From contig CP054837.1 in assembly GCA_028768525.1 (NCBI GenBank), positions 1,391,622 through 1,455,621 on the forward strand: a stretch of 64,000 nt of DNA. Reading direction: 5' to 3'. The DNA is from Desulfobacter sp. (GTDB lineage: Bacteria; Desulfobacterota; Desulfobacteria; Desulfobacterales; Desulfobacteraceae). Positions 33,951 to 64,000 of the stretch are shown here, piece after piece. The translations under genes were made by a program, and so were the position numbers. Position 1 is the stretch's first letter. Every line of letters begins with the position of its first letter. The notes beneath the pieces are model-generated. The model was not told where the DNA came from, searched no databases, and saw only the letters and a program-made list of their open reading frames with translations.

Positions 33951-35864
33951 GTGGACAATATAATTTTAGGCACGGCAGGACACATTGATCATGGAAAGAC
34001 CAGCCTGGTCAAGGCATTGACCGGGGTTGAAACCGACCGCCTCAAAGAGGAAAAAGAGCGGGGCATCACCATAGAACTGGGATTTGCCTCCCTGGATCTT
34101 CCCAACGGACAGCACATCGGCATCGTGGATATGCCGGGCCACGAGAAATTTGTAAAGAATATGGTGGCCGGTTCCTCGGGCATTGATGTGGTGGTGATGG
34201 TGATTGCCGCAGATGAGGGCGTCATGCCCCAGACCCGTGAGCATATGGAAATCTGCAACCTCATGGGCATCCGCCACGGCATGATCGCCCTGACCAAGAC
34301 CGATCTTGTGGATGAAGACTTGCTTGAACTGGCCCTGGAAGATATCAACGACTTTGTGGCAGAGACCTTTCTGGAAGAAAAACCCATTGTGCCGGTATCA
34401 TCCGCCACAGGCCAGGGCCTGGAAAAATTCACAGCCACCCTTGAAGATATCTGCAGCCAACTGCCGGAACGAAAATATTCTTCCATATTCCGCCTTCCCG
34501 TGGACCGGGTGTTCTCCATGAAGGGATTTGGCACCGTCATCACCGGGACCCTGATATCCGGCCAGGTTAACGTGGGGGATGACATCATGGTCTACCCCAA
34601 AAAAATCACCTCCAAAGTCAGGGGGATTCAGGTCCACTCCAGTGCCGTTGACAATGCTGCCGCCGGCACCCGGACCGCCATCAATTTCCAGGGCCTGGAC
34701 CGGGAATCCGTGGTCCGGGGGGATATACTCTCCTCGCCTGGCACTCTTATCGAGAGCTATATGGTGGATGCTGATTTCCATTTTCTGAAAAGCAATGCCA
34801 AACCGGCCAAGGCCAGAACCCGGGTGCGCTTCCATTCCGGCACCAGTGAAATCCTGGGGTATATGGTTCTCCTTGACCGGGAGGAACTTCTGCCGGGGGA
34901 TTCAGCCCCGGTGCAGTTCCGCCTGGAGGCACCGGTCTGCTGCATCAAGGATGACCGCTACGTGGTCCGGTCATACTCACCGGTGAAAACCATCGGCGGC
35001 GGCACCATCCTGAACCCCGCCTCCCAGAAGCATAAATTAAACGATCCTGACGTTATCCAGGGCCTTGCCGACCTGCTCACAGAGGACCATGAAAAAACCC
35101 TTTCATACTTTCTTTCCCAGAGAGGATTTGCCGGGCTCTCCCTCACCGACCTGAGGGTGATGGCCAATATCCCGGATAAAAAGCTGGCCGCCACCCTCCA
35201 GAAAATGCTGGCCAGACAGGAAATCATCCAGACAGACAAGGAAAGGCAAATATATGTCCACGGCAGGGTGTTTGACAATTTCAAAGAAAAGTCACTGAAG
35301 CTGCTGGCCGCCTACCACGAAGCCAATCCCTTAAAGGAGGGCATGCCCGCCCAGGAACTGAAATCCAAATTCAAATACGTGGATGACGCCCGGTTCTTTA
35401 ATATCCTGTTCAACCGCCTGGAAAAAGAAAAGGCAATTATCCAGGACAAAAACCTGGTCAAACTGGACGGGTTTGAGGTGGCACTGCAGGTGGACCAGCA
35501 TGAAATAAAGGAAAAAATCCTGGGGATTTACAAAACGTCAGGCCTCACCCCGCCTTTTTTCAGGACCATCTGTCAGGATCTGGACCTTGACCAGAAAACG
35601 GCCAAGGATGTACTCCAGATGCTCATCGATGAAAAAGAAGTGGTTAAAACCAAAGATGACCTGTTTTTCGGGGCGGGTGCCATTGCCGACCTTGAAACAA
35701 AACTCATTGAATTTTTAAAGGCAAATGAAAAAATCACCACTCCGGAATTCAAAGATATGACCGGTATTTCAAGAAAATTCGTTATCCCCCTGATTGAATA
35801 TTTTGATTCCACCCGCCTGACCATCCGGGTGGGGGACCACCGGCAATTGAGGCGTCAGGTCTAA
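33951..35864 (+). CDS. selB: Selenocysteine-specific elongation factor
   Basis: [29 protein letters not shown]; C-terminal winged helices with [14 protein letters not shown]. Confidence 0.97.
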
Positions 35865-62451: not shown

Positions 62452-63348
62452 TCAGGATTTTTCCTTTTCTCCATCAGGCTTGCCGTCTTTGCCTTCGGTA
62501 CCCTCCCCCTCTTCTCCCCCCTCGGGTGTCTCTGTGATGGTATGCTCGATAATGAACTCTTCCACCTTGGCCACAGAGGAGGCCACAATGACATGGTCAA
62601 TCTTGATTTCTTTGATGAATCCCTCCATATAGGGATTAAGAACATCCATCAGCTTTTTTTTCTGGCTTTTAATTTTCTCAAAATTTTCAACATCCCCGTA
62701 GACCAGTGAACTTAAAAAAAGAATAGCCGCATCCCTGGCCTTGGGATGAATGGTGGGCACCACTTGATCCGGCATCAGTTCCTTGAGTGCCAGGCTCATG
62801 TTCAGGCAGAGATACCGGTCCCTGGCATTGGAGGAATGTTTATTTAAATTAACCGCAATGGGCTTCATCGGTATGATTGGGGCGGCTTCACCGCTGTCCC
62901 CCCCGGCCTTCTGCCCCCCGGTTTTCTTCCACTCTGCCACCCGGCCGTTCTCTTCCTTGAGCACCATCAGGCGGCTTTGCAGGTCTACGATCTCGAAGAA
63001 ACTGGTATCGTTCTTCTCCCAGACCTCTTCGATATCAGACTCAACCACAGTAAAAATCAGCTGATCGTCCTCCATATGCCAGGACCCGTTTGCACTGCCT
63101 TTTGAACTGACAATCTTGGAGGTGGCATCTGCAATACGGACCGAGGAATTCCATGTTCCCTTTGGATTTATGATCAAAAGGACGTATGTCCGGTTTCTGT
63201 AATGCGTCCAGTTGCCCAGCACCAGTTCTTCCCGGCTTGGCTCTTTTTCTCCGCAGCCCGTTATTCCGGATACGGCAATGAGAATAAGCATTAGCAAAAA
63301 AGAGACCTTGAATGCCTCCCCTGATTTACGCCTGATCTGTCCGTACAT
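62452..63348 (-). CDS. Lipoprotein with a beta-rich domain and a C-terminal FliL-like domain
   Basis: Lipobox ITG-C; IAVNL...RYL.L...ARDAAILFLSS...LMDVLN FliL-type pattern. Confidence 0.6.
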   Translation of the reverse strand: MYGQIRRKSGEAFKVSFLLMLILIAVSGITGCGEKEPSREELVLGNWTHYRNRTYVLLIINPKGTWNSSVRIADATSKIVSSKGSANGSWHMEDDQLIFTVVESDIEEVWEKNDTSFFEIVDLQSRLMVLKEENGRVAEWKKTGGQKAGGDSGEAAPIIPMKPIAVNLNKHSSNARDRYLCLNMSLALKELMPDQVVPTIHPKARDAAILFLSSLVYGDVENFEKIKSQKKKLMDVLNPYMEGFIKEIKIDHVIVASSVAKVEEFIIEHTITETPEGGEEGEGTEGKDGKPDGEKEKS

Positions 63349-63525
63349 GGTATTGTCCTGAGATTATGGGTTTATCCTCATGATAGACAGGCTATCACGG
63401 CCGGTGAAACGGGTCAAGGCAGGGTCCGGTACAACGAAACGCCTGCCGGCCTTCATCTCTTAAGTTCGGGGGGAACGGTGAAAAACTTTAGTCAAAGCAA
63501 GGCTGTTGAGGGATGGAAAATGAAA

Positions 63526-63560
63526 AAGGCGTCCGTACACAGAGGGTGTCCAGACGCCTT
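63526..63560 (-). terminator. Terminator of the HesB-like gene
   Basis: AAGGCGTC..ACAC stem followed by TTTTTC on the minus strand. Confidence 0.65.
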
Positions 63561-63582
63561 CTTATTAAATGGCTTAAATTAC

Positions 63583-63900
63583 TTAATCGCCGCAGGAACC
63601 GCCTGAGCAACCGCCGCAGCCGCCGCCCTGGCCCAGATCAATATTTGAGTCAAGGTGAAATCCCATTCCGGTGAAATCAATCTTGATTTTTTCGGCTTTT
63701 GCCATGAAATCTTTATCAACGACAAACTTAAGCCCTTTAACGTCAAAAGAATCGTCTGTATCTTTAGGCTCATCCAGAGCCATTGCAAGGGACGGGCCAC
63801 CTCAGCCGCCGGAGTTAAGAAAAATTCTGATAGGGGTGGGTTCCTTCCCCTGGAAATAATCGTCGATCTGCGTTTTAGCAGGATCAGTCAACTCAATCAT
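63583..63900 (-). CDS. IscA/HesB-like selenoprotein (Sec33)
   Basis: TAAGGAG RBS, ATG 63900; MIELTD...IRIFLNSGG-TGA(63804-63802)-GGPSLAMALDE...GCGGCSGGSCGD; 105 aa when read through. Confidence 0.9.
63753..63801 (-). promoter_or_regulatory. Putative SECIS hairpin
   Basis: GGCTC-TGGAT-GAGCC apical stem-loop (63781-63767), loop 25 nt after the UGA; possible CGTC/GACG lower stem. Confidence 0.55.
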
Positions 63901-64000
63901 TGTAACACTCTCCTTAAAATCTAATATTTGGCCATTCAGAGGCCGCCCCCTGAATAGCCTTACGTTAACCACACTTATCGGCCTGTCAATGTCAAGGCCT

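Follow-up and report, generated by a model that had tools for sequence, protein, structure and literature searches.

Near the right-hand end of the window (the whole 64,000-nucleotide stretch of Desulfobacter sp. DNA analysed here), translation table 11 splits a stretch of the minus strand into a 32-aa N-terminal piece, contained in the ORF 63802..63972, and a 66-aa ORF beginning at Met40 (63583..63783). The question raised by this locus is whether the TGA at the junction is a stop codon or a selenocysteine (Sec) codon within a single gene, and what a Sec residue would do in the encoded protein. An earlier note on this DNA had regarded the split as the work of the ORF caller on a gene for an IscA/HesB selenoprotein, and the layout of the locus agrees with that description. 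When TGA is translated as U, a single frame is obtained in which the only TGA lies in the sequence NSGG-U-GGPSL, and a good ribosome-binding site stands at an appropriate place before the ATG that the note had proposed (Table 1). Downstream of the gene, a hairpin followed by a U-run has a folding energy of -23.4 kcal/mol (z = -4.72; 0 of 200 shuffles were equally stable) by direct RNA folding, and was missed by a simple consensus terminator scan. Because this terminator is located just 3' of the stop codon, the gene looks monocistronic.

Table 1. Positions of the selenoprotein gene, its signals and selB in the window
Feature	Position	Strand	Description
IscA/HesB-family selenoprotein CDS	63583..63900	-	105 residues and TAA stop, translated with TGA=U
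Ribosome-binding site AAGGAG	63910..63915	-	9-nt spacer to the ATG (63900-63898); read from the sequence
UGA codon 33, predicted to be read as Sec	63802..63804	-	context NSGG-U-GGPSL
Putative SECIS hairpin GGCUC-UGGAU-GAGCC	63767..63781	-	5-bp stem, apical loop UGGAU, 20 nt after the UGA
Stop codon TAA	63585-63583	-	end of the TGA=U frame
Intrinsic terminator hairpin and U-run	63523..63563	-	about 20 nt 3' of the stop codon
selB, Sec-specific elongation factor	33960..35855 (G000:1425581-1427476)	+	TIGR00475, 357.9 bits against a cut-off of 242.25

As a whole, the observations are best explained by a monocistronic gene for a 105-residue selenoprotein of the family NF038090, with recoding by SelB and a SECIS element, an A-type carrier fold and a proposed role in the hand-over of Fe-S clusters or iron; we estimate the probability of this reading at about 0.9. 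That the gene truly encodes Sec and belongs to a known family is near certain. The NCBIfam profile NF038090 ("IscA_HesB_Se") matches residues 1-97 over positions 1-101 of its 101 positions with 116.8 bits, above the curated cut-off of 85 bits, and the IscA/HesB identity given in the earlier note is thereby borne out; in a six-frame search of the genome, the gene scored 109.6 bits. Because the match runs across the TGA, the homology on its two sides is not due to chance, and one domain model covers both halves of the split gene. Pfam PF01521 (Fe-S_biosyn) also matches residues 2-86, with 32.9 bits against a gathering threshold of 26.3. The score for the archaeal-type model TIGR01911 (HesB_rel_seleno) was 32.4 bits, under the cut-off of 66.35, and the protein is not a member of that family; the canonical A-type carrier model TIGR00049 gave 40.6 bits (cut-off 58.8), and the equivalog models of IscA, SufA and ErpA gave 29 bits or less (cut-offs 117-181). 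Judged from its sequence, the protein belongs to a sister subfamily of the TIGR01911 HesB-like selenoproteins. Both the G-(U/C)-x-G-P motif and the C-terminal Cys-rich tail of NF038090 are present in it, and across 35 aligned Sec and Cys members, U/C33, G35, P36, C95, C98 and C103 are invariant. The last three of these, arranged as C-G-G-C-x4-C, are the extra C-terminal Cys residues to which the earlier note had drawn attention.

NF038090 matches were recognized in 40 of 41 related genomes, most of which have one copy with a single TGA together with stop-free paralogs. The TGA occupies the same column in all of the 27 TGA copies extracted from the related genomes, and was found at that codon in 80 of 80 loci when genome contigs were scanned separately (Desulfobacter, Desulfobacula, Desulfotignum, Desulfospira and other Desulfobacteraceae), the two sets possibly having genomes in common, whereas the 24 stop-free paralogs examined all have TGC or TGT there. 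In the comparison with Cys-containing homologs that the earlier note had called for, position 33 is Cys or a TGA taken as Sec in the copies compared. In a draw across the phylum, the family was present in 80 of 201 genomes, with a single TGA in the large majority of the copies listed. A Cys paralog of NF038090 exists in the same genome as the gene under study (G000:C1:4637628-4637912; L017:1468-1854, minus strand); the genes next to it encode a 4Fe-4S dicluster protein and an FAD/NAD-binding oxidoreductase that contains a DHODB-type Fe-S domain. In several Desulfobacterota genomes, Sec and Cys copies of NF038090 stand in tandem, only a few hundred bases apart (for example, G134:C1:830979-831753 and G216:C14:17189-18474, with three copies in G216; further cases are G199, G056, G057, G229, G118, G185, G080, G200 and G230), which suggests local duplication into isoform pairs.

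In E. coli IscA (SGCSG) and Aquifex AQ_1857 (GGCSG), the first cluster-ligand Cys stands opposite residue 33, and the paralogs likewise have their Cys there, so that the placement of Sec at the first conserved carrier Cys, as proposed from the sequence of the window, is supported. In the aligned PDB entries 1s98, 1r94 and 1nwb, the first ligand Cys is opposite Sec33. An AlphaFold model, for which the 35-sequence family alignment served as input, has a confident core with a pLDDT of about 90; its Cys-rich tail, comprising residues 92-105, is disordered and has a pLDDT below 50. Its best matches in the PDB are IscA (1r94, 1s98 and the [2Fe-2S]-bound 1x0g), SufA (2d2a) and AQ_1857, and for IscA and SufA Foldseek gave a probability of 1.00 with TM values of about 0.6-0.7.

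From this arrangement, a function can be proposed in which Sec33 would occupy the first cluster-ligand Cys site of canonical carriers, the flexible Gly/Ser-rich tail would add three invariant Cys residues (C95-x2-C98-x4-C103), and an Fe-S cluster, or iron, would be transiently bound and handed over with the selenolate among its ligands. On the strength of the modelled fold, the position of Sec and the Cys residues of the tail, we consider the odds of such a carrier function to be roughly even. No canonical A-type carrier was found in the genome at the TIGR00049 cut-off, and PF01521-type matches are confined there to the Sec copy and the Cys paralog; the Sec protein would therefore work alongside the Cys paralog, a situation that fits a carrier role.

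The alternative that survives best accepts a real selenoprotein and denies the Fe-S carrier: Sec33 and the CxxC...C of the tail would form a selenylsulfide/thiol relay, or a site for the trafficking of sulfur, selenium or metal. Such a protein would resemble most prokaryotic selenoproteins, which are thiol-type oxidoreductases, and a 2026 review regards most uncharacterised selenoproteins as probably redox proteins and lists for the HesB-like family no more than the motif UxGP (PMC13188914). The CxxC spacing of the tail is typical of redox or metal sites, the scores fall under the cut-offs of the TIGR00049, IscA, SufA and ErpA models, and the structural matches include DsrR, an IscA-fold protein of sulfur metabolism with a structure determined by NMR; moreover, a disruption mutant of the hesB-like gene of M. 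maripaludis was unimpaired in nitrogen fixation (PMC11097638). However, by both fold and sequence, the Sec coincides exactly with the Cys that is a cluster ligand in IscA, and the genome is otherwise devoid of an A-type carrier, so we regard this alternative as rather unlikely, at odds well short of even. The organism, a relative of sulfate reducers, is presumably rich in Fe-S enzymes.

Returning to the carrier reading, a bolder version of it, which we think improbable, is that NF038090 is a distinct class of four-ligand carriers (U/C33 plus CxxC...C) that replaces the canonical A-type carriers in many Desulfobacterota, the tandem Sec and Cys copies being a selenium-dependent isoform pair comparable to the Sec/Cys isoenzymes of Methanococcus. 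Should the Sec copy bind a cluster through its selenolate, this protein would be an Fe-S carrier with selenolate ligation found in nature, and would offer a concrete system in which to study the contribution of Sec to the lability of a cluster or to its rate of transfer.

The hairpin that the earlier note had placed at SECIS distance behind the UGA is conserved in the related genomes. All five pairs of the stem are formed in 26 of the 27 extracted Sec copies and in 79 of the 80 copies of the contig scan (105 of 107 intact), whereas the Cys paralogs lack it, with three pairs or fewer in 24 of 24 and an intact stem in none of the 24. The hairpin coincides with codons for Ala-Leu-Asp-Glu, residues that are the same in nearly all Sec and Cys copies. 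In the Sec copies, Ala is GCT, Leu is CTG and Glu is GAG in 107 of 107 cases each, and the Asp codon is GAT in 94 and GAC in 13, its variable base falling in the loop; the codons just upstream, for Pro36, Ser37, Leu38 and Ala39, each vary among four or five synonyms. The Cys paralogs encode Ala-Leu-Asp-Glu by GCN (all four codons), CTG/TTG/TTA, GAC/GAT and GAG/GAA. At residue 45, the Sec copies have Pro, with a CCN codon that closes the stem, and the Cys copies mostly have Lys. Codons that are frozen in the Sec copies and free in the Cys paralogs are the signature of an RNA structure superimposed on a coding sequence, and these frozen synonymous sites, with the contrast to the paralogs, strongly support the predicted hairpin. 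True compensatory double changes were not found in the stem, which is nearly invariant across the Sec copies. The single-sequence fold of the region after the UGA was no better than that of shuffled sequences (z = -0.69), one minimum-free-energy fold of this region favours another pairing, and an Rfam scan of the whole window detected tRNA-His alone, with no match to a SECIS family. By the distance range of the bSECISearch model, the 20-nt spacing is taken to be a SECIS distance.

One sub-clade of the relatives (L021-L030, L036 and L040) adds a 7-bp lower stem, GUCUUUA/UAAAGAC, through Ser-Leu and Lys-Asp codons; the copy in the window has other codons there and lacks this stem. Like the E. 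coli fdhF-type SECIS, the hairpin is a stem-loop within the coding sequence shortly 3' of the UGA and has G in its apical loop, but its conserved stem is much shorter (5 bp, with the 5-nt loop UGGAU).

The genome is equipped to use such an element. The window itself carries selB, as the earlier note had stated, with a frame that is open over 641 aa and has zero stops, and the genome also contains selA (616 bits) and tRNA-Sec (76.5 bits); selA, selB, selD and tRNA-Sec all score above their curated cut-offs. There are two selD genes with one in-frame TGA each (G000:C1:3749415-3750335 and G000:C1:297507-298436), and both products are probably selenoproteins. A comparable hairpin, UCCAGG-GGA-CCUGGA with a G-rich apical loop, follows shortly after the UGA in the selD at G000:C1:3749415; the TGA of the second selD (L150) was not located by the pattern search, and the SECIS comparison is with one selD. 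A second selB-like match (G000:C1:1745759-1746988, minus strand) reaches 197.5 bits, below the cut-off, covers only profile positions 1-365 and is interrupted by a single TAA; a selB paralog that was truncated or has decayed is one possible identity, and a different translational GTPase is another. Recoding by SelB and a SECIS element is, on comparative sequence grounds, strongly supported. In the proposed mechanism, SelB with Sec-tRNA(Sec) would bind the hairpin 20 nt downstream of UGA-33, and Sec would be inserted at this codon in place of termination; for the binding of SelB and the actual incorporation of Se, we infer as much from the genes and the hairpin.

Codon usage around the TGA bears on whether it is passed at all. 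Entropy was computed at codon positions 1, 2 and 3 over 106 Sec copies: upstream of the TGA, the values are 0.45, 0.22 and 1.06 bits; downstream, they are 0.38, 0.30 and 1.21 bits; and within codons 34-40, they are 0.07, 0.08 and 1.32 bits. An in-frame start was not found within codons 34-39, ahead of Met40. Because codons 34-39 evolve as a coding sequence and have no start of their own, ribosomes must read through the UGA. Public entries of relatives (proteins P0002-P0017, P0041, P0095 and P0098 were examined) present the gene otherwise: the NCBI entries from metagenome-assembled genomes (MAGs) of close relatives are 'hypothetical proteins' of 65-68 aa that start from Met40 (MALDE), and others are full-length, of about 105 aa, with W33, the TGA having been read as Trp on short contigs. 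A TGA-aware pass with NF038090 would correct many public entries.

The short entries, and the fact that table 11 yields exactly these two ORFs, are what would be expected if the TGA were a true stop, either in a pseudogene or between a gene for a 32-aa peptide and one for a 66-aa protein from Met40. However, the TGA column is kept in more than 100 copies from many families of the phylum, unlike in a decaying pseudogene, the startless codons 34-39 are under strong purifying selection at the protein level, one domain model (NF038090) spans the TGA and both halves, and a product from Met40 would be without the helix and the initial strands of the fold; a pseudogene and a split pair of ORFs are both rejected on these grounds as extremely improbable. 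Decoding of the TGA as one of the standard amino acids (Trp, Cys or Gly), by a changed code or general suppression, has the W33 gene calls in its favour and is rejected as having next to no chance, since a TGA directly after the conserved C-terminus ends several orthologs in related genomes and is thus still a stop in this group, the Sec machinery of the genome is complete down to tRNA-Sec, conservation of a dedicated hairpin is restricted to the copies with TGA, and homologs have Cys at this residue, as is usual for counterparts of Sec.

The genes around the selenoprotein gene were considered as a clue to function and rejected as such, because no link of these neighbors to Fe-S or selenium metabolism was found at the locus. 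They encode a FliL-like protein, a thiamine pyrophosphokinase and a 384-aa ORF, and are syntenic in 54-74 of 109 loci within Desulfobacteraceae. The downstream neighbor (window positions 62452-63348, minus strand) encodes 298 aa with a FliL-like domain (36.8 bits) and an acidic tail rich in Glu, Gly and Lys; an N-terminal hydrophobic segment followed by Cys looks, by eye, like a putative lipoprotein signal, and this gene is syntenic in 72 of the 109 loci. The 384-aa ORF (L018:1891-3042, plus strand) lies just past the right end of the window, divergent from the selenoprotein gene; it has no Pfam match and is conserved beside the selenoprotein gene in 54 of the 109 related loci.

In kind, the gene is already known, having a dedicated curated model, NF038090, and a HesB-like literature of about two decades. 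'HesB-like' was one of 25 bacterial selenoprotein families, then with 11 selenoproteins, in the survey of Zhang et al. (2006), where its entries include Syntrophobacter, Syntrophus, Desulfovibrio, Geobacter and Desulfuromonas, and where a remnant SECIS is discussed for a Cys form (PMC1794560). The 2026 review describes a HesB-like protein with the motif UxGP and states that such selenoproteins are annotated in RefSeq (PMC13188914), and for Methanococcus maripaludis, mutagenesis together with 75Se labelling led to the identification of a HesB-like protein as a selenoprotein (PMC11097638). Vinella et al. (2009) defined the A-type carriers solely as having one complete PF01521 domain, and their paper contains neither an explicit cysteine-motif definition nor a mention of Sec forms (PMC2682760). 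A literature search combining Sec, HesB and Desulfobacter gave nothing specific. The statement in the earlier note that the class is known and the role of its Sec not established is in accord with these sources, in which HesB-like proteins are listed as a selenoprotein family of a function that is 'not clear' (PMC1794560, PMC13188914, PMC11097638). The role of Sec at the cluster-ligand position of an IscA-fold protein is the question that this gene poses, and the genome, in which a clean Sec/Cys pair occurs naturally and a canonical A-type carrier is lacking, is well suited to testing it. In short, the locus is an experimental opportunity inside a known family and not a new discovery.

Among known systems, the HesB-like selenoprotein of Methanococcus and other prokaryotes shares with the protein described here the PF01521-type fold and a single Sec in UxGP at the first conserved Cys; within that TIGR01911 group, the experimental identification applies only to the archaeal protein (PMC11097638). 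The likeness to NF038090 extends over the full length and includes the U/C-x-G-P motif, the C-x2-C-x(3-8)-C tail and the existence of Sec and Cys forms within the same genomes of Desulfobacterota; no family-defining difference was found, and the copy in the window differs from one sub-clade by the missing lower SECIS stem. With IscA, SufA and ErpA (TIGR00049; PDB 1s98, 1r94, 1x0g and 2d2a), the protein has in common the fold, the ligand position and a flexible C-terminal ligand region. The tail of canonical carriers such as E. coli IscA contains an adjacent C-G-C pair, whereas the protein of the window, which would have Sec in place of the first Cys, has three spaced Cys residues in its tail (CxxC...C), and thus four potential ligands per monomer.
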